A DNA stretch of 64,000 bases from assembly GCF_003991155.1 (NCBI RefSeq), contig NZ_CP031293.1, one strand, 5' to 3'. Within the stretch, counting starts at the first letter, position 1; every line of letters begins with the position of its first letter. Made by a program: the position numbers and the translations under genes. This stretch comes from Escherichia coli. Its GTDB lineage: Bacteria; Pseudomonadota; Gammaproteobacteria; Enterobacterales; Enterobacteriaceae. A model generated the notes under the pieces. It ran no database searches. It saw nothing but the letters and a program-made list of their open reading frames with translations, and was not told the origin of the DNA. Shown here in pieces: positions 41,614 to 61,705 of the stretch.

Positions 41614-43182
41614 TTAGCGTGCCGGCTGAGTAGTCGTGGAAGACTGCTCAAAGTGATAGCGACCGGTTTTCAGGCTGCTTGGGCCGAGGCGTGCAAACTT
41701 GAACATTAAGAACAATTCTGCCACCAGGAACAGGGTATACAGGCCGCAAATCAGCACCATTGAGAAGATGAGATCGCCTGCGGTCAGTGACGAGTTCGCC
41801 ACAGCTGTCGGCAGCACTTCACCGATAGCCCACGGTTGGCGGCCATATTCAGCCACAAACCAGCCCGCTTCTACAGCAATCCACGGCAGCGGAATACCGT
41901 ACAGCGCGGCGCGCAGCAGCCATTTTTTCTCGCCAATGCGGTTGCGGATGACACTCCAGAAAGAGAGCGCGATGATTGCCAGCAGCAGGAAGCCACACGC
42001 CACCATGATACGGAACGCGAAGTACAGCGGCGCTACACGCGGAATGGAGTCTTTGGTTGCCTGTTGAATCTGCGCTTCAGTCGCATCAGCCACGTTTGGC
42101 GTATAGCGTTTCAGCAGCAGACCGTAACCGAGGTCTTTCTTCATGCTATTGAACTGGTCACGAACCGCCTGGTCGGTAGAACCAGAACGCAGTTGCTCGA
42201 GCAGAGAGTACGCCTTCATCCCGTTACGAATGCGTTCTTCATGCTGCACCATCAGTTCTTTCAGGCCGATAACTGGAGTATCCACGGAACGCGTTGCAAT
42301 GATGCCCAGCGCGTAAGGGATCTGGATCGCAAATTTGTTCGTCTCCTCTTCCTGATCAGGAATGCCGAACAGAGTAAAGGCAGCAGGCGCAGGTTGCGTT
42401 TCCCACTCGGCTTCAATAGCAGCCAGTTTGGTTTTCTGCACGTCGCCCATTTCGTAACCAGATTCATCACCCAGAACAATAACAGACAGAACGGCAGCCA
42501 TACCGAAGCTGGCAGCGATAGCAAAGGAGCGTTTAGCGAAGGCGAAGTCACGACCTTTCAGCATATACCATGCGCTGATACCGAGGATGAACATCGCGCC
42601 AGTCACATAACCAGACGCTACAGTGTGAACGAATTTCACCTGAGCAACCGGGTTAAGCACCAGCTCGGAGAAGCTCACCATCTCCATACGCATAGTTTCA
42701 AAGTTGAAATCGGACGCGATTGGGTTTTGCATCCAGCCGTTCGCAACCAGAATCCACAGTGCGGACAGGTTTGAACCGAGCGCCACCAGCCAGGTGACAC
42801 ACATATGCTGAACTTTACCCAGACGATCCCAACCGAAGAAGAACAGACCTACAAAGGTGGATTCGAGGAAGAAGGCCATTAGACCTTCGATTGCCAGCGG
42901 CGCACCGAAGATATCCCCTACATAGTGGGAATAGTAAGACCAGTTAGTCCCGAACTGGAACTCCATGGTCAGACCGGTAGCCACACCCAGAGCGAAGTTG
43001 ATACCAAACAACTTGCCCCAGAACTTGGTCATATCTTTATAAATCTGTTTGCCGGAAAGGACGTAGACCGTTTCCATAATGGCCAGCAGGAACGCCATAC
43101 CGAGCGTCAGTGGCACAAAAAGGAAGTGGTACATCGCGGTCAAGGCAAACTGTAAGCGCGACAGTTCGACTATATCTAACAT
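41614..43182 (-). CDS. cydA: Cytochrome bd-I ubiquinol oxidase subunit I
   Basis: 522 aa from [24 protein letters not shown]. Confidence 0.95.
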
Positions 43183-43185
43183 CAT

Positions 43186-43987
43186 GACTCCTTGCTCATC
43201 GCATGAAGACTCCGAGAGTGAACCCCGTTAGAAAGGGTCACACGCATGCCCCAATACAAAATTATTTGCTCGCCTCTATCGTTGCCATTTCATCAAAAGA
43301 GGAAAAGACAATGATAAAAAAGTTACAAATATGTTAATGAATAAACCAAATTGATCCCGTAATTATATTACGCCGCAAAATCCTTACAATAAACAGGTTT
43401 TTATTGAGCAAATTTGCATTTTTCGACAGTGATCAATTTATAGCGAAATTGTCACGATCTCACCAATTTGATCTACGACAATTTATCGTGTTTTGCAGAT
43501 TTTTTTCAAGAATTAAAAATTGATTTATATCAAAACCAACCAAATATGTTAATTATGTATAAACCATAGATCATTGGTGATTTTATTGTTAATTTATTGT
43601 GAAATATTTATGCAACACAATTATTACAATGAAAAGGTATAGATAAAAAACCAGTGTTTTATTTAACAGAACCGCCTTATCCACTTTTTATAATACCAAT
43701 TGATTAGATTAGCCAATTTGTTGCTATTTTACATAACATATTTTTATCAAAGTTAATTGATTGTTGCCTTTATGAGCACCGGCCGTAAGCCCGTTATGTT
43801 ATTGTTTCATTAGTAATAATCACTTAAATGTATCGATGAAACAGGTATGACTTAGCGGGAGTGATTGTTTCTGAGTGAACAGAAACCACTTTCGCCTGAT
43901 AAATGAAAAATGAGCGATTTTTGCAAGTTAGTTTTTCTATAGCCGAGTACGCTCAGCGCCTCGCTTGATTACAATGAGGTTGCTGCT
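43186..43987. promoter_or_regulatory. Long AT-rich cydA upstream region / island junction
   Basis: About 800 bp with no ORF of 60 aa or more, visibly AT-rich; the cydAB promoters (FNR/ArcA-regulated in K-12) are expected here but individual sites were not resolved. Confidence 0.4.
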
Positions 43988-44932
43988 ATGAGTCCTGATA
44001 ATATCGGTTCGGCTGTCAATCGCTTCTCAGGTTGGCCATCTAATGATCCTCTAAAAACAGATAACGAATCAATGACATCACCCGTGACTGTGCAGGTAAT
44101 AAAGATGATTGCCGCCATCCTTGACCCATATCGGATAGTCGTTGGAATCGATACACTTTATACAACGCAGCGCGAAACATTTACCTCAGAGAGTCAACAG
44201 CTCATTGAATCAGCATTGCAAACACTTCATGTGATAAATTTAAATAACCTGGAAACAAATCTCGATGAGGACGGTCACTATCTGGCTTTTGGATATAACG
44301 TTGACACTCCTGACAGAATAACCGTTTCTGCTTATAATGAAAAAAAGCCTGGCTGCTATGGCCAATGTCTTTTAATACAGGATGACGAAACAGACTTATT
44401 TAACCTGATAAAAGTTAAAATTTTTGAAGCCAGGCATAATTATGTCGCTCAATTGATGAGCGATCCGGAATTTATGTTCAAATTTAGTTATAGCGCTCAA
44501 CAAAATAGATTAGAACCTCATCTTCTGGTTCCCACTTATTTCCCTCTAAAAACAAACGAACCGGTTACGCAAGAGGATGTACTGTTACTTTATCGTTTCT
44601 TTAAAATGGATGGTGATTTTAATATATTAACATCAGATGAATACATGAGTATCATGACACCTCTGATGAAGTGTGAGCGCAGCATCCACGACCACAACAG
44701 GTATGTGACGGGCAAAGATACCCTTCTTCTGGACTATCCTCCTTCTGGTAACCAGATATATTTCCATATTTTTCCTGACGAATCAGCAACACTAGTCCTT
44801 TATTTTTCAAACAATGACATTGAATGTTTCGTCTTTGAAAGAGATATTCCGAGCCAGTATCGCTTTTTCAAAATGTTTACCAATCTGGCACTGGTTATTG
44901 ATCAGTTAACCGATGCCAATCAAATACTTTAA
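43988..44932 (+). CDS. Hypothetical protein (314 aa), AT-rich, no recognised family
   Basis: ATG with gagg RBS about 9 nt upstream; contains internal YRFFKM repeat; low-GC codon usage. Confidence 0.6.
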   Translation: MSPDNIGSAVNRFSGWPSNDPLKTDNESMTSPVTVQVIKMIAAILDPYRIVVGIDTLYTTQRETFTSESQQLIESALQTLHVINLNNLETNLDEDGHYLAFGYNVDTPDRITVSAYNEKKPGCYGQCLLIQDDETDLFNLIKVKIFEARHNYVAQLMSDPEFMFKFSYSAQQNRLEPHLLVPTYFPLKTNEPVTQEDVLLLYRFFKMDGDFNILTSDEYMSIMTPLMKCERSIHDHNRYVTGKDTLLLDYPPSGNQIYFHIFPDESATLVLYFSNNDIECFVFERDIPSQYRFFKMFTNLALVIDQLTDANQIL

Positions 44933-45012
44933 TTTTTATATATTCCCTGTGGCAAATATTGCTAAACAATGCCCGGGGATTAATTTTTATTACTCACGGA
45001 AAGATTTAAATA

Positions 45013-45435
45013 ATGATCCCATCTCAAATCTCTTTCAACACCCTTCCTGTCAATGCAACATACGCTTCAGAGACAACAGTTGACACACAAAAATTCTCTG
45101 ACATCCTCTACTCAGCGGGGTGTTCCCTAAAGGATCTGGCTTATCTGAGCAGATGTCTGGCATCAATACATCCGACTATCGCCAAAAACATTTATGAAAC
45201 AGAAAATCTCAGCGATCAAAAATTACTACATATTGATTGCCGTAGTACAAATGAAATCAAGATAAATATCTTTTTTGGTCAACAACGAGAAGGATTAATT
45301 GAAATTAATTCTGACACTGTCATTTTTTCGATATTGTCTTCATTAATTGACTCCGCCATTTCTAAATTTCAACACCAAATCCCCGTTAACGGTTCAGTTA
45401 ATCGTGAACTATTGTATGAGGATTATACTGATTAA
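45013..45435 (+). CDS. Hypothetical protein (140 aa), AT-rich, no recognised family
   Basis: ATG start; Ser/Thr/Asn-rich N-terminus, acidic C-terminus; 80 bp downstream of previous ORF. Confidence 0.55.
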   Translation: MIPSQISFNTLPVNATYASETTVDTQKFSDILYSAGCSLKDLAYLSRCLASIHPTIAKNIYETENLSDQKLLHIDCRSTNEIKINIFFGQQREGLIEINSDTVIFSILSSLIDSAISKFQHQIPVNGSVNRELLYEDYTD

Positions 45436-45981
45436 ATCCACCCAGTCGCGAAAATGGCCTGCGTTATTGCCAGAGGTAATAAAACCTTTGATTAACGTTA
45501 CTCATACTGGTAGCACCTTCATGTACCTCTCTTTTTTACGAAAAATCAAAAGAGCTAACTAAGGTCATAATTCGCATGAATCATTAACCATTTGTTATTT
45601 TCAACATTATTTTTACATTAAGCAGAGATGAATTGCAGTGAAATTCGACTTAAATTTTATGAAATGCATTTACTCATGGCTAAACCCATATCACTAAAAT
45701 GCAAATTAGAAGTAGATCACAAATACCTCAATACACCAAATCAAGTTAATTTTAAAAATTTAACATTCATGACATTAGTTGACATAACACACTGAATTAA
45801 CATGAGAATTTAACAACATACTTTAAACAATCATTTCCCGAAAGACATTTTGAAAATAGATCAATTGCAACATTACGGTCAGATAAAGACACTCCTGTGA
45901 TATTAAACCTGTGCCGTTATGAACGGCCATAAATACGACGTGTGTAACTTATTTTACTCTCTGTCTTACAAAGGATTACCC

Positions 45982-46431
45982 ATGAAGAAAGCAACACTTG
46001 TGATTGGCGTTATTGGCGCGGACTGCCATGCAGTAGGCAATAAAGTTCTGGACCGCGTTTTTAGCAACCATGGCTTCAGAGTCATTAATCTGGGCGTAAT
46101 GGTCAGCCAGGACGAATATATTGATGCGGCCATTGAAACTGGCGCTGACGCGATTGTCGTCTCCTCTATCTATGGGCATGGCGATATCGACTGTCTGGGC
46201 ATGCGCGAACGCTGCATCGAGCGTGGACTGGGGGACATCCTGCTCTATGTGGGCGGTAACCTGGTGGTCGGAAAACATGACTTCGCTGACGTGGAAACCA
46301 AATTCAAAGAGATGGGATTTGATCGCGTCTTTGCCCCAAGTCATGACTTAGAAGATGTTTGTCAGCTGATGGCACACGATATCAACCAACGTCATGACGT
46401 TGATACTCGTATTCTTGAAGAGGCAATCTGA
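45982..46431 (+). CDS. Glutamate mutase sigma (S) subunit, B12-binding
   Basis: [24 protein letters not shown]: DxHxxG cobalamin-binding motif; strong similarity to clostridial GlmS/MutS; aagga RBS; ORF track start 45919 is an extension. Confidence 0.9.
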
Positions 46432-47819
46432 TGCAAATCGTCTCTGTCGATATTGGATCGACGTGGACCAAAGCAGCCCTCTTCGCCCGGGAGGGGGATG
46501 CGTTAACGTTGGTTAACCACGTACTGACCCCAACCACCACCCATCATCTGGCGAAGGGGTTTTTCTCCAGCCTGAACCTGGTGTTAAACGTAGATAATGC
46601 CCTCCCCCTGTTTAACAACGGTGAGGTTGCATTGAAGTATTCCTCCTCTGCCAAAGGTGGGCTGGCGGTTGCCGCAATGGGATTGGTGCCTTCTATCACC
46701 CTGGAAACCGCGAAAGTAACCGCTCACTCTGCGGGGGCTAAAATTGCGCAATATTACGCCTACAAGCTGAACCGCCGTGATATCCAGGCACTGGAAGAAA
46801 CGCAGCCCGATATTCTCTTGTTCACCGGCGGCACCGACGGCGGAGAAGAAAGCTACGGCCTGAATAACGCCCGTGTGCTGGCAGAATCCAAACTCGACTG
46901 CGCCATTATTTATGCCGGAAACCGGGATATTCAGGACGAGGTGCAGGAGATCCTAGGGCATAAAGACCTGACCATCGTCGACAACGTTCTGCCCGATCTT
47001 GACCATCCGAACCCTTTAGCTGCACGCCAGGCTATCTGCGACATATTCCTTAAACGCATCGTTAAAGGGAAAGGGCTGGATGTCGTTGTTGATAAAACAG
47101 GCGAAGAACCAATGCCGACACCGTGGACAGTCTTTGAACTGGTTAAGGCAATCAGTAATGTCGATCACAGCTGGAAAGAGTTCATGCTGATCGACATGGG
47201 TGGCGCAACCACCGATGTCTATTCCGCCTGTGCCAACACGCTCTCGCCCGACACCGTTTTACACGGCGTACCGGAACCCTTCGTGAAACGGACGGTGGAA
47301 GGCGATCTGGGAATGCGCGTCTCGGCAATGGTGGTTGGTGAAAGTGCGAAAGAGTTAGTCAATGTGAATTTTGCTCAGCAACCCGCACAGCTGGACGCTT
47401 TTTATCATTACCTCCGTCATCTAGTCGCTCATCCCGACTACTTACCCGCGAATGCAGAAGAAAAATATTTCGATACCGTCCTGGCCGGACTGTGTGTGGG
47501 TTATGCCACCGAAAGACATGCGGGCACCAAAAAAGAGGTCTGCACCTGCGTCGGCAATGTCGATTTACAGATGGGACGTGACCTGACAACCGTGCGTAAA
47601 GTCGTCGGATCCGGCGGATGGCTCTCGCGTGCCAGTCAGTTCGATATGCATCACTGGTTGAAATACCGCGAGTTAAACGACGACGGTAAACGCATTCTCT
47701 TACCGACCGAATTTGAATATTACCGCGATTCCCGGGGGCTATTACCACTGCTGGCAAACGTCGCCAGAGTCGATCCGCTGGCCGCCGCGCGCACCAGTAT
47801 TCAATGCTTAACCCTATAA
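46431..47819 (+). CDS. Glutamate mutase-associated protein L (MutL/GlmL-like, putative reactivase)
   Basis: 462 aa; start overlaps S-subunit stop (TGATG); position between S and E as in Clostridium. Confidence 0.8.
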   Translation: MQIVSVDIGSTWTKAALFAREGDALTLVNHVLTPTTTHHLAKGFFSSLNLVLNVDNALPLFNNGEVALKYSSSAKGGLAVAAMGLVPSITLETAKVTAHSAGAKIAQYYAYKLNRRDIQALEETQPDILLFTGGTDGGEESYGLNNARVLAESKLDCAIIYAGNRDIQDEVQEILGHKDLTIVDNVLPDLDHPNPLAARQAICDIFLKRIVKGKGLDVVVDKTGEEPMPTPWTVFELVKAISNVDHSWKEFMLIDMGGATTDVYSACANTLSPDTVLHGVPEPFVKRTVEGDLGMRVSAMVVGESAKELVNVNFAQQPAQLDAFYHYLRHLVAHPDYLPANAEEKYFDTVLAGLCVGYATERHAGTKKEVCTCVGNVDLQMGRDLTTVRKVVGSGGWLSRASQFDMHHWLKYRELNDDGKRILLPTEFEYYRDSRGLLPLLANVARVDPLAAARTSIQCLTL

Positions 47820-47837
47820 CAATTAAGGCTGCAATCA

Positions 47838-49283
47838 ATGGAACTTCGAAATAAGAAATTAACCCATGACGAATTCATGACCGAGCGGCAACAGGTACTG
47901 AAAACCTGGGAAACCGGCAAGGATGTTGAAAACTTTGAAGATGGCGTTAAATACCAACAAACCATTCCTGAGCATAAACGCTTCTCTCTTGCCCTGCTGA
48001 AAGCAGACAAGGAAGGTAAAACTCTTAGCCAACCGCGCGCAGGCGTGGCGCTGATGGACGAACACATCGAACTACTGAAAACACTACAAGAAGAGTGCGA
48101 TCTGCTGCCGAGCACCATCGATGCATATACCCGTCTGAATCGGTACGAAGAAGCGGCTGTAGGGATTAAAAAATCCATCGAAGCCGGAACCTCTAAACTG
48201 AACGGTTTACCGGTCGTTAACCACGGCGTCGCAGCTTGCCGTCGCCTCACCGAAACTCTGCAAAAACCGCTACAGATCCGCCACGGCACGCCAGATGCGC
48301 GTCTGCTGGCTGAAATCTCGATGGCCAGCGGCTTTACCAGTTATGAAGGCGGCGGCATTTCCTACAATATTCCGTATGCCAAGCGCGTAACGCTGGAAAA
48401 ATCGATCCGCGACTGGCAGTACTGCGACCGTTTAATGGGGATGTATGAAGAACACGGGATCCGCATCAACCGCGAACCGTTTGGCCCACTAACGGGTACC
48501 CTGATCCCGCCGTTTATCTCGCACTCTATCGCGATAATCGAAGGCTTGCTGGCGCTGGAACAGGGTGTGAAATCTATCACCGTTGGTTATGGACAGGTCG
48601 GCAGCCTGACGCAGGATGTTGCGGCGATCCAGTCTCTGCGTGAACTTGCACACGAATATTTTCAGAGCTATGGCTATACCGACTATGAATTAAGTACCGT
48701 GTTTCACCAGTGGATGGGCGGCTTTCCGGAAGACGAATCGAAAGCGTTCGCTATTATCTCCTGGGGCGCAGCCGTCGCGGGGATGTCTGGTGCCACCAAA
48801 GTCATCACCAAAAGTCCGCACGAAGCCTGGGGCATCCCGACTGCCGCTGCCAACATTCAGGGGCTGAAAGCCTCCCGCCAGATGCTCAACATGGTCAACG
48901 AGCAGAAATTCCCGCCGTGCCCTGCGGTTGAACTGGAAATTGAACTGATTAAGAGCGAGGTTCGCGCGGTACTGAATAAAGTGTTCGAACTGGGTAATGG
49001 TGATATTGCGCGCGGTACGGTGCTGGCATTTGAAGCGGGCGTACTGGATGTGCCGTTTGCGCCAGCCGCCTGCAACGCGGGCAAAATTCTTCCGGTCCGT
49101 GACAACACCGGCGCGATACGCGTACTGGAAGCCGGAGCCGTTCCATTGCCAAAAGATATTCTCGACCTCCACCACGATTACGTTGCGGAACGCGCACGCT
49201 TTGAAGGACGCCAACCGACATTCCAGATGGTTGTAGATGACATCAATGCTGTATCCCACAGTAAATTAATAGGAAGACCATAA
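47838..49283 (+). CDS. Glutamate mutase epsilon (E) catalytic subunit
   Basis: MELRNKKLTHDEFMTERQQVLKTWETGKDV closely matches clostridial GlmE/MutE N-terminus; 481 aa. Confidence 0.9.
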   Translation: MELRNKKLTHDEFMTERQQVLKTWETGKDVENFEDGVKYQQTIPEHKRFSLALLKADKEGKTLSQPRAGVALMDEHIELLKTLQEECDLLPSTIDAYTRLNRYEEAAVGIKKSIEAGTSKLNGLPVVNHGVAACRRLTETLQKPLQIRHGTPDARLLAEISMASGFTSYEGGGISYNIPYAKRVTLEKSIRDWQYCDRLMGMYEEHGIRINREPFGPLTGTLIPPFISHSIAIIEGLLALEQGVKSITVGYGQVGSLTQDVAAIQSLRELAHEYFQSYGYTDYELSTVFHQWMGGFPEDESKAFAIISWGAAVAGMSGATKVITKSPHEAWGIPTAAANIQGLKASRQMLNMVNEQKFPPCPAVELEIELIKSEVRAVLNKVFELGNGDIARGTVLAFEAGVLDVPFAPAACNAGKILPVRDNTGAIRVLEAGAVPLPKDILDLHHDYVAERARFEGRQPTFQMVVDDINAVSHSKLIGRP

Positions 49284-50524
49284 TGAAAATAAAACAGGCT
49301 CTGTTCACCGCTGGCTACTCCTCATTCTATTTCGATGACCAGCAGGCGATAAAAAACGGAGCGGGTCATGACGGCTTTTTTTATACCGGGGAGCCGGTAA
49401 CACAGGGGTTTAACGCCGTTCGTCAGGCCGGGGAGTGCGTATCAGTACAGTTGATTCTGGAAAACGGCTCGGTCGCCGTAGGTGACTGTGCTGCCGTACA
49501 GTATTCCGGGGCAGGTGGTCGCGATCCACTGTTCCTCGCTGAGCACTTTATTCCGTTCCTCAACGACCATATCAAGCCATTACTGGTAGGCCGCGATGTG
49601 GATGCTTTCCTGCCGAATGCCCGTTTCTTCGACAAATTGCGTATTGACGGCAACTTGCTGCATACCGCCGTGCGCTACGGATTATCACAGGCGCTGCTTG
49701 ATGCTACCGCGCTGGCAACCGGCCGTCTGAAAACTGAAGTAGTTTGCGATGAATGGCAGTTGCCACGCGTGGCGGAATCCATTCCATTATTTGGTCAGAG
49801 CGGGGACGATCGATATATCGCCGTCGATAAGATGATCCTTAAGGGCATCGACGTGCTGCCCCATGCACTGATTAATAACGTCGAAGAGAAACTGGGCTTT
49901 AAAGGTGAAAAACTGCGCGAATATGTCCGCTGGCTGTCGGATCGTATTCTGAGCAAGCGCACCAGCGCACGCTACCACCCTACCCTGCACATCGATGTAT
50001 ACGGCACTATCGGTCTGATCTTCGATATGGATCCGCTTCGCTGTGCGCAATACATCGCCAGCCTGGAAAAAGAAGCGCAAGGCCTGCCGCTCTACATTGA
50101 AGGGCCGGTCGATGCCGGTAACAAGCCCGATCAAATTCGCCTGCTGACCGCGATTACCAAAGAGCTGACGCGCCTCGGTTCCGGCGTGAAAATTGTGGCC
50201 GATGAATGGTGTAACACCTACCAGGATATTGTTGATTTCACTGATGCCGCCAGTTGTCACATGGTGCAAATCAAAACCCCGGATCTGGGCAGTATTCACA
50301 ACATCGTCGATGCGGTTCTTTACTGCAACAGCCACAGCATGGAAGCGTACCAGGGCGGCACCTGCAATGAAACTGATGTCAGTGCCCGCACCTGTGTCCA
50401 CGTCGCCCTTGCCGCTCGCCCTATGCGTATGCTGGTAAAGCCAGGGATGGGCTTTGACGAAGGCCTCGATATCGTCTTCAACGAAATGAATCGTACTATC
50501 GCGCTGTTGCAGGCTAAGGATTAA
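49283..50524 (+). CDS. 3-methylaspartate ammonia-lyase (beta-methylaspartase)
   Basis: MKIKQALFTAGYSSFYFDDQQAIKNGAGHDGF..DCAAVQYSGAGGRDPLF matches clostridial methylaspartase; start overlaps E-subunit stop. Confidence 0.92.
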   Translation: MKIKQALFTAGYSSFYFDDQQAIKNGAGHDGFFYTGEPVTQGFNAVRQAGECVSVQLILENGSVAVGDCAAVQYSGAGGRDPLFLAEHFIPFLNDHIKPLLVGRDVDAFLPNARFFDKLRIDGNLLHTAVRYGLSQALLDATALATGRLKTEVVCDEWQLPRVAESIPLFGQSGDDRYIAVDKMILKGIDVLPHALINNVEEKLGFKGEKLREYVRWLSDRILSKRTSARYHPTLHIDVYGTIGLIFDMDPLRCAQYIASLEKEAQGLPLYIEGPVDAGNKPDQIRLLTAITKELTRLGSGVKIVADEWCNTYQDIVDFTDAASCHMVQIKTPDLGSIHNIVDAVLYCNSHSMEAYQGGTCNETDVSARTCVHVALAARPMRMLVKPGMGFDEGLDIVFNEMNRTIALLQAKD

Positions 50525-50527
50525 CAA

Positions 50528-51898
50528 ATGGCTCGTTCTTTTAAAGTCTTATCGCCAACGGCAATCCTCGGGTATGGATTCCCGGAAGAGAGCTTCCGCA
50601 AAGCGATGGCAGAATCGCCCGATCTGATCGCCGTTGATGCAGGCTCTTCCGATCCTGGCCCCCACTACCTCGGAGCGGGCAAACCGTTTACCGATCGCGC
50701 AGGGGTCAAGCGCGATCTGCGCTATATGATCACCGCAGGCGTGCAAAATAATATACCGGTGGTGATCGGAACAGCTGGCGGTTCTGGTGCCGCACCACAC
50801 CTGGAGTGGTGCCGAGAAATAATTCATGAGATTGCCCGGGAAGAGCGACTCGTGTTCTCGATGGCGCTGATCCCGGCAGACGTTGACAAAGCCATCGTCC
50901 ACCAGGCGCTGGATAACGGCAAAATCACGGCGCTGGATTTTGTCCCGCCGTTAACCCACGACGCGATTGACGAAAGTACGTATATCGTTGCGCAAATGGG
51001 CATCGAACCCTTCCAGCGGGCGCTGAAAGAAGGCGCGCAAGTGGTGCTGGGCGGGCGCGCTTACGACCCGGCCTGCTTTGCTGCGCTCCCGATCATGCAA
51101 GGCTTTGATGAAGGTCTGGCGCTGCATTGTGGGAAAATCCTTGAATGCGCGGCAATCGCCGCAACGCCCGGCTCAGGCTCTGACTGTGCGATGGGCATCA
51201 TTGATGACAACGGCTTTACGCTGAAGACATTTAATCCGAAGCGTAAATTTACCGAAACGTCAGCGGCTGCACACACACTGTATGAGAAATCCGATCCCTA
51301 CTTCCTGCCTGGACCTGGCGGCGTGTTGAACCTGAAAGGCTGCACATTTAAAGCGGTCAATGACGGCGAAGTGTACGTCAGCGGTTCTAAGCATGAAGAA
51401 ACGCCGTATGCCCTGAAACTGGAAGGTGCGCGACGGGTGGGCTTCCGCTGTCTGACCATCGCAGGAACGCGCGACCCGATCATGATCGCCGGGATCGATA
51501 AAATCATCGATGAAGTCAAAACCAGCGTTTCACGTAACCTGTCGCTCGACGATGACAGCATTCGCATCAATTTCCACCTGTACGGCAAAAACGGGGTGAT
51601 GGGCGACCATGAACCGATGCAAACTGCCGGGCATGAGCTGGGGATTGTCCTTGATGTAGTTGCACCGACCCAGGAAATTGCCAATAGCGTTTGCTCGCTG
51701 GTGCGCTCTACCATGCTGCACTACGGCTATGAAAACCGCATCGCTACCGCAGGCAATCTGGCGTTCCCGTTCTCCCCTTCTGATATCCAGGGCGGGCCGG
51801 TATACGAATTTTCCATATATCACCTGATTGAAGCCAACGACGCTCTGCGTTTTGATTTCCATATTGAACAGGTGACGCCAGAAGGAGTTCAGGCATGA
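50528..51898 (+). CDS. DUF1446-like (AtuA-like) protein of unknown function
   Basis: 456 aa; N-terminus ...VLSPTAILGYGFPEE resembles the DUF1446 family by recall; 3 nt after methylaspartase stop. Confidence 0.65.
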   Translation: MARSFKVLSPTAILGYGFPEESFRKAMAESPDLIAVDAGSSDPGPHYLGAGKPFTDRAGVKRDLRYMITAGVQNNIPVVIGTAGGSGAAPHLEWCREIIHEIAREERLVFSMALIPADVDKAIVHQALDNGKITALDFVPPLTHDAIDESTYIVAQMGIEPFQRALKEGAQVVLGGRAYDPACFAALPIMQGFDEGLALHCGKILECAAIAATPGSGSDCAMGIIDDNGFTLKTFNPKRKFTETSAAAHTLYEKSDPYFLPGPGGVLNLKGCTFKAVNDGEVYVSGSKHEETPYALKLEGARRVGFRCLTIAGTRDPIMIAGIDKIIDEVKTSVSRNLSLDDDSIRINFHLYGKNGVMGDHEPMQTAGHELGIVLDVVAPTQEIANSVCSLVRSTMLHYGYENRIATAGNLAFPFSPSDIQGGPVYEFSIYHLIEANDALRFDFHIEQVTPEGVQA

Positions 51899-52212
51899 AA
51901 CAGTCAATTGTCTCACTGGCGCAAGTCATTCGTTCGAAAAATGCCGGACCTTACGAACTGGTTTTAGATATTTTATTTAAAACGAAAGAAAACTATGAGC
52001 GAGTTAAATCATCAGGGCAATTAACCCCAGAACTGATTGCGCGCTTATATCATGTTGAACCTGACTTTATTCACCGTATTGTCTGGTTTGATCCTTCTAA
52101 CGCAGTAAAAATCGTCATGCCACGAGATATTATCTCCGGGAATGTAGGTGACAATGATGTCTATGGTGCACAGCAACATGCACCTTTATTAAATATGAGT
52201 TTCGATTTGTAA
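51895..52212 (+). CDS. DUF4387-like small protein (usual partner of DUF1446)
   Basis: 105 aa; ATG overlaps upstream stop (ATGA); family assignment by recall. Confidence 0.6.
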   Translation: MKQSIVSLAQVIRSKNAGPYELVLDILFKTKENYERVKSSGQLTPELIARLYHVEPDFIHRIVWFDPSNAVKIVMPRDIISGNVGDNDVYGAQQHAPLLNMSFDL

Positions 52213-52372
52213 AAATCCGAATACTTTTAGCCAACTGACATCCCGTCACTTATTGCAGTTCAACACTTCAGCTATTTGTAAGGTTGTAATAGCAGGTAGA
52301 TGCCTGAATCTCTATTCAGGCATCTACTTCTCCTGATTCTGATTTATCGCCGTGCACCTGATGGAGGAAAAA

Positions 52373-53653
52373 ATGAAGAAAATAAGTTTAACCACGATGA
52401 TTCTTTTGGCGCTGGTACTTGGAATGATTATCGGCGTAGTGCTCAATAACACTGCTTCACCGGAAACCGCAAAACTCTATGCGCAAGAAATATCGATATT
52501 CACGACGATTTTCTTACGACTGATAAAAATGATTATCGCTCCGTTAGTGGTCTCTACCCTGGTGGTAGGTATAGCTAAAATGGGAGATGCCAAAGCCCTT
52601 GGTCGTATTTTTTCTAAAACACTCTTTTTATTTATTTGCGCCTCATTGCTGTCAATTGCCTTAGGCTTGATAACGGTAAATTTCTTCATGCCAGGCACAG
52701 GAATTAATTTTGTTGCACACGGTGCCGAAACCACCGGAGTGGTCGCGTCAGAACCCTTTACACTAAAAGTATTTATTTCGCATGCTTTCCCCACCAGCAT
52801 TGTCGATGCCATGGCACACAATGAAATTTTGCAAATCGTGGTGTTCTCAATTTTCCTCGGCTGTAGCCTGACGGCGATTGGTGAGAAAGGCAGCGCCATC
52901 GTTCACGCCTTAGATTCGCTGGCACATGCCATGTTAAAGCTCACTGGCTACGTCATGCTCTTCGCTCCCCTGACCGTATTCGCCGCTATTTCAGCATTGA
53001 TTGCTGAACGAGGACTGGCAGTTATGGTGAGCGCCGGGATCTTTATGGGTGAATTTTATTTCACCATGTTGTTACTTTGGGTGCTGCTTATCGGTCTGGC
53101 CATCGTTTATGTCGGCCCCTGCATCAGACGCCTGACCCGTGCCCTTTCGGAACCCGCCCTGCTGGCATTTACCACATCCAGTTCTGAAGCGGCTTTTCCG
53201 GGAACGCTTGAAAAACTGGAGCAATTTGGCGTTTCCCCCAAAATTGCCAGCTTTGTCTTACCCATTGGCTACTCATTTAATCTCGTTGGATCAATGGCCT
53301 ACTGCTCCTTCGCCACAGTTTTCATCGCCCAGGCCTGCAATATCCATTTATCCATCGGTGAGCAAATCACCATGCTGTTGATCCTGATGTTGACCTCGAA
53401 AGGAATGGCTGGCGTACCACGCGCCTCAATGGTGGTTATCGCCGCCACGCTCAACCAGTTCAATATTCCGGAAGCGGGGCTGATCTTGCTGATGGGCGTT
53501 GATCCGTTCCTTGATATGGGGCGTTCCGCGACAAACGTCATGAGCAACGCAATGGGCGCTGCGATGGTGAGTCGGTGGGAAGGCGAACATTTCGGCGAGG
53601 GCTGTCGGGGTAAAGCATTAAAACCCAATGAATCGAACGTTGCTCTGCCCTGA
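52373..53653 (+). CDS. Dicarboxylate/amino acid:cation symporter (DAACS, GltP-like)
   Basis: 426 aa polytopic protein; ggagg RBS before ATG 52373; ORF track start 52352 is an extension. Confidence 0.8.
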   Translation: MKKISLTTMILLALVLGMIIGVVLNNTASPETAKLYAQEISIFTTIFLRLIKMIIAPLVVSTLVVGIAKMGDAKALGRIFSKTLFLFICASLLSIALGLITVNFFMPGTGINFVAHGAETTGVVASEPFTLKVFISHAFPTSIVDAMAHNEILQIVVFSIFLGCSLTAIGEKGSAIVHALDSLAHAMLKLTGYVMLFAPLTVFAAISALIAERGLAVMVSAGIFMGEFYFTMLLLWVLLIGLAIVYVGPCIRRLTRALSEPALLAFTTSSSEAAFPGTLEKLEQFGVSPKIASFVLPIGYSFNLVGSMAYCSFATVFIAQACNIHLSIGEQITMLLILMLTSKGMAGVPRASMVVIAATLNQFNIPEAGLILLMGVDPFLDMGRSATNVMSNAMGAAMVSRWEGEHFGEGCRGKALKPNESNVALP

Positions 53654-53760
53654 GGGGGATCTTAAGCAATCAGAAGCCAATGACTACGCATTTTTATAAG
53701 CCGGATCATGAAGTTAGACGGCAATTAAGTAAAACTAACGTTTAAGGTGAAAAGTGAAAT

Positions 53761-55413
53761 ATGTCCAAACCATTTATCTGGCAAGAACCGTTTCTACAAA
53801 ATAAAGACGGTACAGAATATACATTAATTAGCGATCAACATATTACAGTAACGGAATTAGACGGCGAAGAAGTGATAAAAATCGCTCCTGAAGCATTAAC
53901 GCTGCTTGCCCGGCAGGCATTTTATGAAGCCTCTTTTTTCTTACGTTCCGCTCATTTGCAACAGGTCGCCAGCATTCTTAACGATCCGCACGCCAGTAGT
54001 AATGATAAATACGTTGCGTTGCAGTTATTACGTAATGCTGAAGTCTCAGCAAAAGGGGTATTACCCAACTGTCAGGATACCGGCACCGCAACTATTGTTG
54101 CCAGTAAAGGGCAACAGATATGGACCGGAGGTAACGACGCTGAAGCCTTAAGCAAAGGCATTTACACCACTTTTCAGGAAAATAATCTGCGCTTTTCACA
54201 AAATGCGCCACTGGATATGTATACCGAAGTCAATACGCAAACCAATCTACCGGCGCAGATTGATATCAGCGCCGTCGCTGGTGATGAGTACCATTTTCTC
54301 TGTATTAATAAAGGGGGCGGCTCTGCCAATAAAGCCGCGCTTTATCAGGAAACCAAATCCCTATTGCAACCAGAAAAACTGACCGCATTTTTAATCGAAA
54401 AAATGAAATCGCTGGGCACCGCTGCCTGCCCGCCTTACCACATCGCCTTTGTCGTCGGAGGGCTTTCAGCCGATCAAACCTTAAAAGTTGCCAAGCTGGC
54501 CTCAACGAAATATTACGACAATTTGCCCACCAGCGGAAACGAGCAAGGACAAGCATTCCGTGATATTGAGCTGGAAAAAGTATTGCTCGAGGCCAGTCAG
54601 CAATTTGGTATTGGTGCGCAATTTGGGGGTAAATATTTCGCTCATGATATTCGCGTCATTCGTCTGCCGCGTCACGGTGGCTCTTGCCCGATAGCTATGG
54701 CGCTCTCCTGTTCTGCGGATCGCAATATCAAAGCAAAAATTAACAAGCACGGTATCTGGCTGGAAAAACTCGAACACAATCCGGGGCAATATATTCCAGC
54801 CTCACTGCGGGAAGAAAATCACGCGCAACATGTACAGCTGGATCTAAACCGTCCGTTGCGTGACGTGATGCAGGATCTCGCCAGATTACCGGTAGGCACC
54901 CGCGTGTCGTTAAGTGGTCCCATCGTAGTGGCGCGCGATATCGCCCACGCCAAAATAAAAGCGCGGCTGGATAGCGGCGAACCGATGCCGGATTACCTGA
55001 AGCATCATATTGTCTATTACGCTGGCCCGGCGAAAACACCGGAGAACATGGCCTGCGGTTCACTGGGTCCAACCACGGGCGGTCGAATGGACGGTTATGT
55101 CGATACCTTCCAGGCGGCTGGCGGCAGTCTGGTGATGTTATCGAAAGGTAACCGCAGCCAGCAGGTCACCGATGCCTGTCACAAACATGGCGGCTTCAAT
55201 CTGGGGAGTATTGGCGGTGCAGCTGCGTTACTGGCGCAAGAATATGTCAAAAGTCTGCGTTGCCTGGAATACCCGGAGCTGGGTATGGAAGCGGTGTGGA
55301 TGATGGAAGTGGAAAATTTACCCGCATTCATCCTGGTAGATGATAAAGGCAATAATTTCTTTAGTCAGTTTGAGCAGCAACACCGCTGCGCCAGTTGCCC
55401 TGCGGGACATTAA
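53761..55413 (+). CDS. fumD: Class I (Fe-S) fumarate hydratase-family enzyme, probable mesaconase
   Basis: 550 aa, FumA/FumB-like along full length; context with methylaspartase suggests mesaconate hydration; symbol follows the name used for the E. coli O157:H7 enzyme (recalled, not verified). Confidence 0.8.
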
Positions 55414-55422
55414 GGAAAATGA

Positions 55423-56025
55423 ATGGAAGCGCGAATTTCAACTGAACGGCATGTGCAGCGCCAGCAGAAATTGAAGGAACAGGTCGATACGCGCGTCGCG
55501 GCGGCGATAGAGAAAAAAGGGATTTTGATTGTTTTCACCGGCAACGGCAAAGGGAAATCCACTGCCGCGTTTGGTACTGTGACGCGCGCGGTGGGTCATG
55601 GCAAAACGGTGGGGGTTGCGCAGTACATCAAGGGGCAATGGGACAACGGCGAATACAACCTTCTCCAACCGCTGGGGGTTGAGTTTCATATTATGGGAAC
55701 CGGTTTTACCTGGGAGACACAGAACCGGCAAGCGGATATCGACGCGGCGAAAGAGGTCTGGTCGGAAAGCAAACGGATGCTGGCTGACAAGCGTTACGAC
55801 TTAGTGGTGCTTGATGAGCTGACCTATATGCTGGCTTACCATTATCTGGACACCGAAGAAGTGATCGCTTCTCTGCAAAACCGCCCGGCACAACAAAGTG
55901 TCATTGTCACCGGACGCGGTTGCCACAGTCAGATATTAAAAATGGCGGATACGGTCAGCGAAATCCGCCCCGTCAAACATGCTTTTGATAACGGCATTCA
56001 GGCGCAGCCGGGTATCGACTGGTAA
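55423..56025 (+). CDS. Cob(I)alamin adenosyltransferase (BtuR/CobA/CobO family)
   Basis: 200 aa; P-loop GNGKGKST; 9 nt downstream of the hydratase. Confidence 0.85.
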   Translation: MEARISTERHVQRQQKLKEQVDTRVAAAIEKKGILIVFTGNGKGKSTAAFGTVTRAVGHGKTVGVAQYIKGQWDNGEYNLLQPLGVEFHIMGTGFTWETQNRQADIDAAKEVWSESKRMLADKRYDLVVLDELTYMLAYHYLDTEEVIASLQNRPAQQSVIVTGRGCHSQILKMADTVSEIRPVKHAFDNGIQAQPGIDW

Positions 56026-56058
56026 TAACTGCGCCTGGCATCCCGCCAGGCGCAGGTT

Positions 56059-56964
56059 TTACATCTCCTGCGGTACGACCGATTTCGCCAGCAACCATTC
56101 ACGAAATTGCTGCAAGTGCGGTGAGTCAGACTTCTCTTCCTGCCACGTCATAATAAAACGATTACCGGTACGAATAGGCACATCACAGGGAATCACCATA
56201 TCGCCACTATCCAAATCATGTTGAATAGCGAACCGTGGTAACAGCGCCACGCCGAGATTAGAGCGCACGGCGGCAATCAGCATTGAAAGCAAATCGAAAC
56301 GTGGTCCGTTATTGACCAGCGGACTGCTAACGCCAGATAAAGCAAACCACTCTTCCCAGCCAGTAATACGGGTGCTTTGATGCAGAAGTGGTAACTCAGT
56401 AAGCAGTTCTGCCACTGACAGTTTTTGATCGGACATTGCAAGCAAACTGCCGCTGCATACCGGCAAAATCTCCTCATCAAAGAGATATTCTACTTCCGCC
56501 CAGGGCGCGCAAAAATTTTCGCGCATAATGACAGCATCGTACTCCCGATTAAGAAAATCGCCGTTATTAGCTAAAGAATGAATATTAACAATAATATCGG
56601 GATGTAACTTTGTGAATTCATGTAAATTTGGGATTAACCAGTGGGTACTAAAAGTAGGATTAACGGCAAGTTCAATAACCTGAACCGTAGGCTGCCAGGT
56701 CATAATGGTATTGGTATCGCGTTCCAGCTTATTTAATGTTTCTTTTACTATCCCCAGGTAATACTTCCCTGCATCATTAAGAAAAATGCGTTTTTTAGAG
56801 TGTGAAAATAACGGAGTACGTAAAAATTCCTCCAGCGCACTTACTTGTCTGAATACTGCACTTTGGGTTAACGCTAACTCCTCTGCCGCTCTGGTATAAC
56901 TTTCATGACGTGCGACGACCTCAAAAGTCACCAGCAGTTCCGTTTTAGGTATTTTTCCTCGCAT
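56059..56964 (-). CDS. LysR-family transcriptional regulator
   Basis: 301 aa; N-terminal HTH FEVVARHESYTRAAEELALTQSAVFRQVSALE. Confidence 0.85.
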   Translation of the reverse strand: MRGKIPKTELLVTFEVVARHESYTRAAEELALTQSAVFRQVSALEEFLRTPLFSHSKKRIFLNDAGKYYLGIVKETLNKLERDTNTIMTWQPTVQVIELAVNPTFSTHWLIPNLHEFTKLHPDIIVNIHSLANNGDFLNREYDAVIMRENFCAPWAEVEYLFDEEILPVCSGSLLAMSDQKLSVAELLTELPLLHQSTRITGWEEWFALSGVSSPLVNNGPRFDLLSMLIAAVRSNLGVALLPRFAIQHDLDSGDMVIPCDVPIRTGNRFIMTWQEEKSDSPHLQQFREWLLAKSVVPQEM

Positions 56965-57002
56965 AATGCCTTCCCTTAAAAATAGTTGAAACTATCAAAA
57001 AA

Positions 57003-57026
57003 CCATTACTTATTGCTAAGTAATGG
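57003..57026. promoter_or_regulatory. Perfect inverted repeat, candidate operator upstream of LysR gene
   Basis: ccattacttattgctaagtaatgg (10-bp arms, 4-bp spacer) 40 bp upstream of LysR start; contains T-N11-A type LysR motif. Confidence 0.4.
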
Positions 57027-57234
57027 CAACCAAAGCAGCAATCAATATTTTATAAAAATCATGTTCGATATTTATAACCTGGTAAGCCTGGCGTGACAAT
57101 TGTCTCAATCAGACAATAATAATCCGAAAAGCAAAACGCCCTTCGGATTATTATGATTCAAGTTAAGTGAAGATTATTAAATTGATAGCAATTATCATAT
57201 CTATGGATATTATGACAAACAATCAACAAAAATT

Positions 57235-58905
57235 TTATTTTTGATTTATAGCATATCCTTCTAAGAATTTTTGCGAAGCTGCAATATCTGGGGTAAAGAC
57301 CCGATCCTGGTCGACAAACGGCACGACTTTTCTGTATTCGGTAAACATTGCTTTGGTGGATTTCCCTAATGCCAGTTGTGGATCGGCCTGCAACCGTAAA
57401 TCGAGAGCCTGTGCGGAATGCATCAGTTCAATGCCATAAATCACGTTCAGATTATCGACAACCTGTTTCAATCTTCTGGCCGCGTGGTCATTATTGGCAC
57501 CGGTATCTTCTATACCTCCGGCAACCGGTTGAATATCGAAAGAAACCGGGTTAGCGAGATCGACATTTTCCGCATGCAGCGCAACAAACGGGATATGTAA
57601 TGAACCGAAGCCATGACCTTTATTACCTGCTGCCGACAGGAAGCGTGACAAACCGGTAAAGTGATCATCTTCAAGATGCAGCGAGCGGCGCATACTGTTA
57701 TGTGAAACATGCACTAACGCCACGGTCAGACGCTGGGTGGCAAGCGCAACCGGTAACGATTCGAAATTCGCCGTCGGGAAGATCCCACCGCTGATTGCCC
57801 CATCTTTAACAAAATATTGCGCGACCTGACTGGAGTCCTGATACGCTTTGTCTGCATTCAGCACGGTTGCCGGGTTGTCATCGGAACTGTTGATCTGCAC
57901 GGTAATGGTATCTTCAGCATCGCGCAACGCGCGCATTGCCTCAGAAATGGTATACACCGTCGTTCTGAACGATAACGGATCCTGCAATGCACGTTTGTCA
58001 TGCTTATGCCATAAATAAGAACCACTTAACGCATCGCGAATCTCTTTAGCGGAATCAGCCAACTGCGGGAAAGGACGCACGGCGATCGACTGCGGCAGTA
58101 CCGGCGCGACATTGCCATTCAACGCTTCCAGACTCATAGCGAAAACCACCGGGCTGACATTCAGCAACTGACGTGCCGAACGAACAGCTTCGATAGCGTA
58201 GGCTGTCCCGACGCTGTTGTTCGATAAAATCGCCAGCATATCTTTACCCTGCGGTACCAGTGGCTTAAGTCCCACTTTCGCCAGCGCGTCACCACCGCTC
58301 ATTTGCACGCCATTTACTCGGGCTTTCCATTCCCCCATCATCACCAGACCAACGTGCGAAGCGAGCATAATATCCGCTGCGCCGATACTTCCCCGCACCG
58401 GAATTAACGGTGTAACGCCGCGATTAATAAATTCGGCATACAACTCGGCAATATAAGGCTGTGCGCCGGTTTGCCCATGCAGCATGGTATTTAAACGTAA
58501 TACCATTGAAAGGCGTGCCAGATAATCCGGTAACATCGGACCAACGCCCGCAGAATGGGCGCGCAGCGCGGCAGCATTAAATTTTTTCGACGCGTCAATC
58601 ACCTCAGGCGTTAAATTTCCTTTGGCATCAAATATGGGCTGATCTTTATTTAGCCCCACGCCCACGGTTAAGCCATAAACAGGCGTACCTGAATGCGCGG
58701 CAGTCATCACCAGATCATAACTTTTTTCCATGCGCTCCATGGCGTTCGACGCGATTTTGACGCCGTTATCACCTAATGCAATTGACCAGGCCTGGTCAAT
58801 GGAAAGATGTTCGCCATCCAGCGTAATGGTTGATTTCGCCATCGCAATGGAGCAAACGCTCCAGAGCACAACGGTGACAGTGACTCTTCGTATCAATCCT
58901 TTCAT
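57235..58905 (-). CDS. Histidine/aromatic ammonia-lyase family homolog with predicted signal peptide and disrupted MIO (Ala-Ser-Gly) motif
   Basis: 556 aa; aligns with HAL throughout (e.g. GEWKARVNG.., LSNNSVGTAYA) but has GSIGAADIMLASH where HAL has GSVGASGDLAPLAH; N-terminus MKGLIRRVTVTVVLWSVCSIAMA-KS is Sec-signal-like; aagga RBS 6 nt upstream. Confidence 0.8.
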   Translation of the reverse strand: MKGLIRRVTVTVVLWSVCSIAMAKSTITLDGEHLSIDQAWSIALGDNGVKIASNAMERMEKSYDLVMTAAHSGTPVYGLTVGVGLNKDQPIFDAKGNLTPEVIDASKKFNAAALRAHSAGVGPMLPDYLARLSMVLRLNTMLHGQTGAQPYIAELYAEFINRGVTPLIPVRGSIGAADIMLASHVGLVMMGEWKARVNGVQMSGGDALAKVGLKPLVPQGKDMLAILSNNSVGTAYAIEAVRSARQLLNVSPVVFAMSLEALNGNVAPVLPQSIAVRPFPQLADSAKEIRDALSGSYLWHKHDKRALQDPLSFRTTVYTISEAMRALRDAEDTITVQINSSDDNPATVLNADKAYQDSSQVAQYFVKDGAISGGIFPTANFESLPVALATQRLTVALVHVSHNSMRRSLHLEDDHFTGLSRFLSAAGNKGHGFGSLHIPFVALHAENVDLANPVSFDIQPVAGGIEDTGANNDHAARRLKQVVDNLNVIYGIELMHSAQALDLRLQADPQLALGKSTKAMFTEYRKVVPFVDQDRVFTPDIAASQKFLEGYAINQK

Positions 58906-58955
58906 TGTGTTTCCTTATCATGATGAGTTTAACAACGGGTTACTGCGACAACGTT

Positions 58956-59906
58956 TTAATTTGTTCTATCTGTTTTCCCCCGCCGGACAATACTGGTCAC
59001 CAGGCGAGCGGCAACTTTCGCAGTTAAATTATCGCGGTCCAGGTCCGGGTTAAGTTCGGCAATATCCGCAGCAATCAACTTCTCGCTACCGGCGATTAAA
59101 TTCACAATGGCTTCAGTAATATTTAACGGCACGCCTAACGGTGATGGAGCAGAAACACCGGGCGCCTGATAACCTGGTAAAACATCGAGACAAATCGTTA
59201 AATAAATGGCGTCACAAGCCTGAATATCTGCCGAGAGCGCATTAGCGATCTCATGCAAACCACGTTCAAATTGCAGAGATTCGTCCAGCCAATAACGCAC
59301 ACCGAGACAATCAGCGCGATCAAATAACGCCTGAGTATTGGCAAAACGACTTATTCCCAGCACGCGATAATGAAACGGTTTGCCATGCTGCGCGTTCCAC
59401 TCTTGCATCTGACGAAACGGCGTACCTGAATTGGCTTGTTCCGCCATCCGTAAATCAAAATGCGCGTCAAGGTTCACAATCAGTAACCGCTGAATATCCG
59501 GACGCGACTGCATAATCCCCTGAAATGTTCCCCACGCCACTTCATGACCGCCCCCCAGAACCACCGGTAAACTGCCGCGCGCAATGGCTGTAGATACGTT
59601 AGCCGCCAGACGATTTTGTGCGGATTCCAGCGCGTGGTCCTCGCTTTGTACATCGCCCATATCGAAAATAGCGCCTTCACAGAGCACTGGCATATTTCCC
59701 AACATGCTGCGCAACGCGCCCGGTCCGCCTGCTGCACCCGCTCGCCCATCATTACGTTGCACTCCGTCATCAACGGCAAAACCAATCAGCGTACAACCGC
59801 CGTGGCTTTGTTCACTAAACGGTTGCACATGCTGATGCCAGCGAGTGCTGATGCCGGTTTCCTGCGAGTCAACACGCCCACTCCACGGCAAAAATGTTTG
59901 CTTCAT
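58956..59906 (-). CDS. hutG: Formimidoylglutamase (arginase family)
   Basis: Start at MKQTFLPWSGRVD (ATG overlapping hutI stop); arginase-fold metal-binding motifs (LDAHFD). Confidence 0.8.
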   Translation of the reverse strand: MKQTFLPWSGRVDSQETGISTRWHQHVQPFSEQSHGGCTLIGFAVDDGVQRNDGRAGAAGGPGALRSMLGNMPVLCEGAIFDMGDVQSEDHALESAQNRLAANVSTAIARGSLPVVLGGGHEVAWGTFQGIMQSRPDIQRLLIVNLDAHFDLRMAEQANSGTPFRQMQEWNAQHGKPFHYRVLGISRFANTQALFDRADCLGVRYWLDESLQFERGLHEIANALSADIQACDAIYLTICLDVLPGYQAPGVSAPSPLGVPLNITEAIVNLIAGSEKLIAADIAELNPDLDRDNLTAKVAARLVTSIVRRGKTDRTN

Positions 59907-61117: not shown

Positions 61118-61704
61118 AAGGATTTTTCCCCTCGTAGATAATAAAGCCACCAGCCCGCCAGCTCACCGACGGAGACTTTCTTCCGTGGTACGAAACGCCA
61201 GGGCCTGCCATCAGGTGCAACCAGCCATAACAACATATTTGCCGCGACAAACACCCTTTTCTTGCCGCTTATCCACTCCCCTTCACACAGCGTGAACAGG
61301 CCCGCTTGCGCAAGTGACGGAGGACGCCAGTCAACGGCACTTTGCACCCGCAACATCCCCGCATCGCCTTCCCGCGCCATAACATTCAGATCGCGAACCC
61401 CGCCGCCCAGCAGCTGGCAATCAGGCATAGCTTCTCCAGGGAAAATTAAGGCGGGATCGTGACGTTGCAGGTTGATGATCGAATCGGCAAACGTTAGCTT
61501 CACCCCTTCCCCGTCGAGAATCGCGAGGCCACGAACCACGCCAGGCCACGCTGAAAAAGAGCCATCCTGACTGACATTCGCCATACTGATGCGCAACAAC
61601 CAGTTTTCATCATCGGGCCAGGCAAGCAGCTGTCGGGTAAACCCCCCGCCGTTGCGCCACGGTTGCAGCGGCTTATCCATTGCAGAAATCAGCATCGGTT
61701 CCAT
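61114..61704 (-). CDS. hutD: HutD-family protein
   Basis: 196 aa with WRNGGGFTRQL motif typical of HutD/Ves family. Confidence 0.75.
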   Translation of the reverse strand: MEPMLISAMDKPLQPWRNGGGFTRQLLAWPDDENWLLRISMANVSQDGSFSAWPGVVRGLAILDGEGVKLTFADSIINLQRHDPALIFPGEAMPDCQLLGGGVRDLNVMAREGDAGMLRVQSAVDWRPPSLAQAGLFTLCEGEWISGKKRVFVAANMLLWLVAPDGRPWRFVPRKKVSVGELAGWWLYYLRGEKSL

Positions 61705-61705
61705 A

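Follow-up and report, generated by a model that had tools for sequence, protein, structure and literature searches.

In a 64,000-nucleotide stretch of Escherichia coli DNA (contig NZ_CP031293.1 of RefSeq assembly GCF_003991155.1; the whole stretch is hereafter called the window), two adjacent genes on the plus strand, encoding proteins of 456 and 105 amino acids, are, as judged from their sequences, full-length orthologues of CmlA and CmlB, the large and small subunits of a citramalate lyase. The larger gene, cmlA, occupies positions 50528-51898 and the smaller one, cmlB, positions 51895-52212. Together they very probably encode a heteromeric CmlAB lyase that functions free of coenzyme A (CoA) and of an acyl carrier, and that completes, within a single operon, the conversion of glutamate to pyruvate and acetate. 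The citramalate lyase function of the pair is already on the public record, with structures released under that name and the enzyme in use in metabolic engineering. An earlier note, made from the letters of the window, had proposed the pair as a missing citramalate-processing step after mesaconase; this proposal is now supported by orthology to the proteins of the PDB entries 9ERQ and 9EVF, by a preprint that employs cmlAB and by the co-occurrence of the genes in other genomes, and the alternative that the same note had offered, an accessory role, is not needed.

The family assignment of the earlier note, DUF1446 and DUF4387, is borne out by profile searches. The 456-residue protein matches Pfam PF07287 (AtuA, formerly DUF1446) over residues 63-394 (E=2.3e-18; 66.6 bits), and the 105-residue protein matches PF14330 (DUF4387) over residues 6-101 (E=2.9e-39). 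RefSeq labels the products as AtuA family and DUF4387, and no NCBIfam model matches CmlA or CmlB. A search of the PDB identified the function: the larger protein aligns along its entire length (residues 1-456) with 9erq_A and 9evf_A at 92.1% identity (E=2.8e-292), and the smaller one aligns with chain B of the same two entries at 84.6% identity (E=5.2e-57). The depositors named these chains 'Citramalate lyase, subunit A (cmlA)' and 'subunit B (cmlB)', and the records also carry the names 'AtuA family protein' and 'DUF4387 domain-containing protein'. Entry 9EVF, released on 2025-10-08, is entitled 'Citramalate lyase - ADP - pyruvate complex', and the other entry of the pair 'Citramalate lyase - AMPPNP - citramalate complex' (ADP, adenosine diphosphate; AMPPNP, adenylyl imidodiphosphate, an analogue of adenosine triphosphate, ATP); the structures have thus been public since October 2025. 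An AlphaFold (AF2) model of the CmlA of the window, with a predicted local distance difference test score (pLDDT) of 96.8, superimposes on 9evf_A with a template modelling (TM) score of 0.97. As both subunits are present in the same PDB entries, they form a complex.

The crystallized CmlAB, from Raoultella planticola or Klebsiella, shares with the E. coli pair its protein lengths (456 and 105 amino acids), gene order and operon context, and chain A of 9ERQ and 9EVF is 100% identical to the product of the gene found at the equivalent operon position in Klebsiella michiganensis (locus L006). The E. coli proteins differ from these orthologues by 36 substitutions in CmlA and 16 in CmlB. For the orthologue, which is 92% and 85% identical in its two subunits, others have shown that it is a two-subunit complex able to bind both citramalate with an ATP analogue and pyruvate with ADP, that it is CoA-independent, and that it converts mesaconate-derived citramalate to acetate and pyruvate in vivo. 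By transfer from this orthologue, the E. coli pair would cleave (S)-citramalate to pyruvate and acetate and, going by the ligands in the titles of 9ERQ and 9EVF, would bind ATP and ADP.

The functional evidence comes from a 2026 preprint, in which cmlAB serves as a lyase for splitting citramalate directly into pyruvate and acetate. The cmlAB plasmid was required for an E. coli strain auxotrophic for acetyl-CoA to grow on mesaconate, and label derived from mesaconate was detected in acetyl-CoA. FumA and acetyl-CoA synthetase were upregulated in the evolved strains, and the upregulation of the latter enzyme points to free acetate as the product. The preprint gives no reference for the CmlAB enzyme, the genes of which were a gift.

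Several points weigh against this reading. Full-text literature searching did not find a primary paper on CmlAB or on the entries 9ERQ and 9EVF, so that the function rests on the molecule names given by the depositors, the entry titles and one preprint; nor did the literature consulted contain an activity measurement of the E. coli CmlA or CmlB. In earlier work, extracts of E. coli ATCC 700728 had no detectable citramalate lyase activity, and no conditions were found under which the cluster was expressed (Kronen and Berg, 2015; PMC4682846). The cluster was silent in the cells used for this lyase assay, the description of which lists neither ATP nor Mg2+ (PMC4682846). Finally, the role of ATP in forming an acyl phosphate (see below) is drawn from the names of ligands only, and we give it an even chance.

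The comparative evidence was obtained from a scan of one genome per species, which yielded 80 loci with CmlA identities of 57-92% from Enterobacterales, Betaproteobacteria, Deltaproteobacteria, Riflebacteria, Aminicenantes, Spirochaetes, Lentisphaerae, Planctomycetes, Firmicutes and others. Neighbouring genes were scored by tblastn, and the resulting counts are lower bounds, as many contigs are short. Conservation of CmlA is strong, exceeding 60% identity between phyla, and cmlB follows cmlA directly in 79 of the 80 loci, the exception being cut at a contig end. The earlier note had suggested examining whether the pair co-occurs with methylaspartase, and the answer is positive: mal is found in the cmlA cluster in 73 loci (71 of them with more than 50% coverage, the two others being cut by contig ends), and it lies directly upstream of cmlA except in L074, at a distance of about 3 kb, and in L085, where it is downstream. 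The glutamate mutase genes accompany the pair almost as often, with glmE kept in 64 loci, glmS in 57 and glmL, upstream of cmlA, in 56. Matches to a class I fumarase that cover at least half of the query occur in 35 loci; several further loci have shorter fumarase matches, which may correspond to split two-subunit fumarases, as in L003. In example loci labelled with Pfam domains, the gene order reads B12-binding, MutL, Met_asp_mut_E, MAAL, AtuA and DUF4387. In Prevotella intermedia, mal and the adjoining AtuA-family genes are co-induced.

The same loci were searched for the classical type of lyase. Using the E. coli proteins as tblastn queries (E<=1e-4), we found no homologue of CitD, CitE or CitF in the window, nor, in the 80 loci, anywhere up to 9 kb from cmlA. 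The earlier note was thus right that citramalate lyase genes are absent from the window, as far as the classical kind of enzyme is concerned. Since CitDEF is carried by the classical clostridial clusters (Kronen and Berg, 2015; PMC4682846, Fig. 4) and is absent from the 80 cmlAB loci, the distribution is the one expected for non-orthologous replacement.

Some loci depart from this arrangement. In L034, L065, L079, L081, L067, L055 and L073, cmlAB occurs with neither mal nor glutamate mutase genes within reach; the hosts of such orphan pairs include Accumulibacter, Shewanella, Desulfospira and two short contigs of metagenome-assembled genomes (Holophagales bacterium and Desulfobacula sp.). An alternative pathway context was sought for the pairs of Accumulibacter, Shewanella and Desulfospira and rejected, the neighbours being unrelated genes (efflux pump, malQ, hrpA, protease, sensor kinase); in Shewanella, cmlAB sits between hrpA and a metalloprotease gene. 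This suggests that citramalate is supplied from another source in those organisms. Outside Enterobacterales, cmlAB is also accompanied by a conserved, uncharacterised protein in which a TsaE-like ATPase is joined to an AlaX-like domain, and which could be a further component alongside CmlAB.

In the window, the pair is embedded in the operon glmS-glmL-glmE-mal-cmlA-cmlB-gltP-fumD-cobO, which would encode the whole methylaspartate route. The coordinates of the other genes were taken from the RefSeq annotation of an identical locus and moved onto the window with an offset of 38527; all nine genes lie on the plus strand. Glutamate would be taken up by a dicarboxylate/amino acid:cation symporter resembling GltP (52373..53653), presumed to act in glutamate uptake, which is conserved in the enterobacterial loci only and bears the label GltP in the earlier description of the cluster (Kronen and Berg, 2015; PMC4682846, Fig. 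5). It would then be rearranged to methylaspartate by glutamate (methylaspartate) mutase GlmSE, composed of the B12-binding subunit S (glmS, 45982..46431) and subunit E (glmE, 47838..49283), with the help of the accessory, reactivating protein GlmL, also called MutL (glmL, 46431..47819), and of adenosylcobalamin made by the cob(I)yrinic acid a,c-diamide (cobalamin) adenosyltransferase CobO (55423..56025). Deamination of methylaspartate to mesaconate would be carried out by the 413-residue methylaspartate ammonia-lyase Mal (49283..50524), and mesaconate would be hydrated to (S)-citramalate by FumD, a class I fumarase/mesaconase (53761..55413). The FumD of strain O157:H7, the operon of which is 98.6% identical in nucleotide sequence to that of the window, has been characterised biochemically as a mesaconase with a Michaelis constant (Km) for mesaconate of 0.15 mM (Kronen and Berg, 2015; PMC4682846). 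In the last step, CmlAB would split (S)-citramalate into pyruvate and acetate.

How a lyase could perform this last step free of CoA and of a carrier is a question of leaving groups. The free acetate carbanion is a poor one, hence the thioester used by the classical citrate and citramalate lyases. In the structures of the orthologue, AMPPNP is paired with the substrate and ADP with a product, which suggests activation through an acyl phosphate. ATP would convert the carboxymethyl carboxylate of citramalate to an acyl phosphate; breakage of the C-C bond in this intermediate would leave pyruvate and acetyl phosphate in its enolate form, and return of the phosphate to ADP would release free acetate. 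ATP would thereby take over the job of the carrier-bound acetyl-thioester in the clostridial CitDEF-type enzyme. That ATP acts in this way, as a co-substrate or catalytic cofactor recycled through an acyl phosphate with free acetate as the product, is to us about as probable as its negation.

A first rival leaves the lyase function untouched and gives the nucleotide an allosteric or structural role only, with citramalate undergoing a direct, metal-assisted retro-aldol cleavage via the aci-carboxylate of acetate, as in isocitrate lyase and without phosphoryl transfer. The wording of the preprint is in its favour, as the cleavage is called 'direct' and is treated as reversible and disfavoured by high acetate, while ATP is never mentioned. 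The conservation pattern also agrees with it, given that D42, R177, D180, E206, E253, E299 and E370 are nearly invariant family-wide, and near-invariant acidic residues together with an arginine are compatible with a metal- and carboxylate-binding site. However, to trap the start and the end of an ATP-using reaction, one usually pairs AMPPNP with the substrate and ADP with a product, as was done here, and an unactivated acetate carbanion leaves poorly. We consider this rival a serious one, if rather unlikely.

A second rival, which we hold to be improbable, accepts the activation by ATP and lets it be consumed stoichiometrically: acetyl phosphate itself would be released, and acetate kinase or phosphotransacetylase would recover its energy. 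The product complex does hold ADP, not ATP, and the AckA-Pta system that this scheme needs is present in enterobacteria. Against it, the engineered E. coli grew better when acetyl-CoA synthetase was upregulated, and the authors of the preprint discuss 'mesaconate-derived acetate'; acetyl phosphate could have reached acetyl-CoA via Pta, with no need for Acs. The recycling of ATP with release of free acetate is the version that we favour for the mechanism of CmlAB.

A different objection concerns the E. coli copies themselves, which could be cryptic genes, or genes in decay, left over from an island gained by horizontal transfer and no longer functional. The failure to find an expressing condition, together with the lack of anaerobic growth on glutamate (Kronen and Berg, 2015; PMC4682846), is compatible with such decay, as is the restriction of the cluster to about 21% of the complete genomes of E. 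coli. The genes themselves argue otherwise and make the idea very improbable. Both open reading frames (ORFs) are full length, and none of the positions invariant among 27 orthologues is altered in the CmlA of the window. The ratios of non-synonymous to synonymous substitution rates (dN/dS) measured against Klebsiella are 0.038 for cmlA and 0.064 for cmlB, similar to the 0.035 of mal, and values of about 0.04-0.06 indicate strong purifying selection; a pseudogene reading of the pair was rejected on this ground (dN/dS of about 0.04). Of 5426 complete E. coli genomes, 1117, those of O157:H7 and O145 among them, have the 10.2-kb operon intact with at least 95% identity and at least 80% coverage, and a dedicated LysR regulator is conserved beside it: a LysR homologue adjoins the cluster in 21 of the loci described above and is still 45% identical in Betaproteobacteria. 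The 1685-bp stretch made up of cmlA and cmlB matches many complete E. coli genomes at 100% and is carried by 1125 of the 5426. In one or two of about 1130 E. coli records the operon is plasmid-borne, and it is chromosomal in the others.

We find it scarcely credible that the pair is something other than a citramalate lyase, be it an AtuA-type enzyme of terpene utilisation, a second methylaspartase or an accessory factor of glutamate mutase: several public records do name homologues '3-methylaspartate ammonia-lyase', but AtuA is the sole Pfam match of the 456-residue protein, without MAAL_N or MAAL_C, no other atu genes occur in the annotated neighbourhood of the window, the methylaspartase label had already been flagged as unexplained (Kronen and Berg, 2015; PMC4682846), and the solved orthologue binds citramalate and pyruvate. 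Two particular identities were rejected for the pair, namely that of a methylaspartase paralogue, the MAAL domains being carried by the product of the upstream gene, and that of a CitDEF-like lyase, as there is no homology to CitD, CitE or CitF and Pfam shows AtuA and DUF4387 only. We also would like to mention that the homologues P0002, P0060 and P0072 are called '3-methylaspartate ammonia-lyase' in their NCBI records despite having an AtuA domain only.

Returning to the layout of the citramalate lyase genes, the lengths of both products, the 3-nucleotide gap after the methylaspartase stop codon and the ATGA overlap had all been correctly described in the earlier note. The TAA stop codon of mal (50522-50524) is followed by the trinucleotide CAA and then by the ATG of cmlA at 50528, and the AAGGA Shine-Dalgarno motif of cmlA sits within the 3' end of mal. 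The ATG of cmlB lies within an ATGA that overlaps the cmlA stop codon, with GAAGGAG just before it. This arrangement probably couples the translation of Mal, CmlA and CmlB and makes it roughly stoichiometric.

The spacer between cmlB and the gltP-like gene is 160 nucleotides long, and a hairpin with a 15-bp stem and a CUCU loop can be read from its sequence on the plus strand (52295..52328), trailed by a U-rich but interrupted tail. RNA folding of positions 52205-52360 gave z=-4.08, and no shuffled sequence folded equally well. The hairpin is possibly a partial terminator or an element that stabilises the mRNA, and there may accordingly be two expression units within the operon. A second, terminator-like hairpin, recognised by match to the consensus only, is located at the end of the operon (56029..56055, plus strand), with an 11-bp stem containing nine G-C pairs and followed by GTTTT. 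Beyond it lies the gene of the LysR-family regulator (56059..56964, minus strand; RefSeq annotation), convergent with the operon. An Rfam scan of positions 43000-57500 revealed no B12 (cobalamin) riboswitch, no other RNA family and no match to the cmlB-gltP hairpin, and a sigma-70 scan returned fewer sites than in shuffled controls, with none upstream of glmS on the plus strand.

The window belongs to the chromosome of E. coli, and the island that carries the operon is flanked there by cydAB on one side and by a hut gene set on the other. Unlike its counterparts in other genera, the E. coli island adjoins hut genes and two orphan ORFs. The region between cydA and glmS (43000-46000) has a low guanine-plus-cytosine content of 34-38%, compared with about 53% in the flanks, and holds these two ORFs, annotated by RefSeq as hypothetical (43988-44932, plus strand, 314 amino acids; 45013-45435, plus strand, 140 amino acids); neither has a Pfam or NCBIfam match, and neither has a homologue beside the cluster in other genera. 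On the other side (57235-64000, minus strand), genes for an ammonia-lyase of the HAL family, hutG, hutI, hutD, a permease and hutU adjoin the glutamate operon. Glutamate is the end product of histidine breakdown, so that the island could connect histidine with pyruvate and acetate; in the 80 loci of other species, no homologue of HutH or HutG turned up at 9 kb or less from cmlA. Farther away in the window (about 9460-15600) lies another organic-acid gene set, consisting of ybhJ (aconitase-family hydratase), ybhI (anion permease), ybhH (PrpF-family isomerase) and ybhD (LysR), the product names of which are generic or putative.

The identification of CmlAB bears on a gap that had been stated explicitly. 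Kronen and Berg (2015; PMC4682846) did not settle what becomes of citramalate in E. coli, after having tested citrate lyase, isocitrate lyase and methylisocitrate lyase and excluded them as the enzyme that cleaves it; the same authors had already remarked on the DUF1446 gene found downstream of mal in Enterobacteriaceae and Dictyoglomus. CmlAB fills this gap in the enterobacterial glutamate-fermentation cluster. The E. coli operon would thereby become a complete module for the conversion of glutamate to pyruvate and acetate, present in about one fifth of complete E. coli genomes. Annotation lags behind, as RefSeq still uses 'AtuA family' and 'DUF4387' and no NCBIfam model exists for either subunit, and the citramalate lyase function is now transferable to these entries.

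Among other known systems, the citramalate lyase of clostridia (EC 4.1.3.22) catalyses the same net reaction at the same end position of the methylaspartate pathway (PMC4682846), but is a CitDEF-like complex with an acyl carrier subunit. AtuA, known from the acyclic terpene utilisation of Pseudomonas and Thauera, belongs to PF07287 as CmlA does. In AtuA-type proteins of about 600 amino acids, DUF4387 is fused at the C-terminus, as seen in P0148, of which residues 503-604 are 34% identical to CmlB; CmlAB is therefore a version of the AtuA architecture split into two genes. CmlA differs from AtuA as a divergent member of the family that would act on a free C5 dicarboxylate instead of a CoA ester and that is encoded in an operon for amino-acid fermentation. 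The reaction assigned to AtuA is formally equal to the cleavage of citramalate, in that acetate leaves from a carboxymethyl group on a tertiary-alcohol carbon. This assignment is unproven, and another review attributes the terpene step in question to LiuE (PMC4097962).

The AtuA family comprises 2383 clusters at 50% identity with E<=1e-3, 443 of which have E<=1e-30, and it includes split as well as fused forms. We tentatively entertain, while thinking it unlikely, that the whole AtuA/DUF1446-DUF4387 family consists of nucleotide-dependent, carrier-free lyases that remove, as acetate, a carboxymethyl group attached to a tertiary-alcohol carbon; if this were true, CmlAB would be the first characterised example. 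The formal likeness of the terpene step to citramalate cleavage makes this idea attractive. Lastly, provided that the role proposed here for ATP is right, the chemistry of CmlAB would recall by analogy that of ATP-citrate lyase and citryl phosphate, where a carboxylate is activated by ATP before the C-C bond beside a tertiary alcohol is cleaved. CmlAB differs from ATP-citrate lyase in having no homology to it and in using no CoA, and its ATP would probably not be consumed overall.

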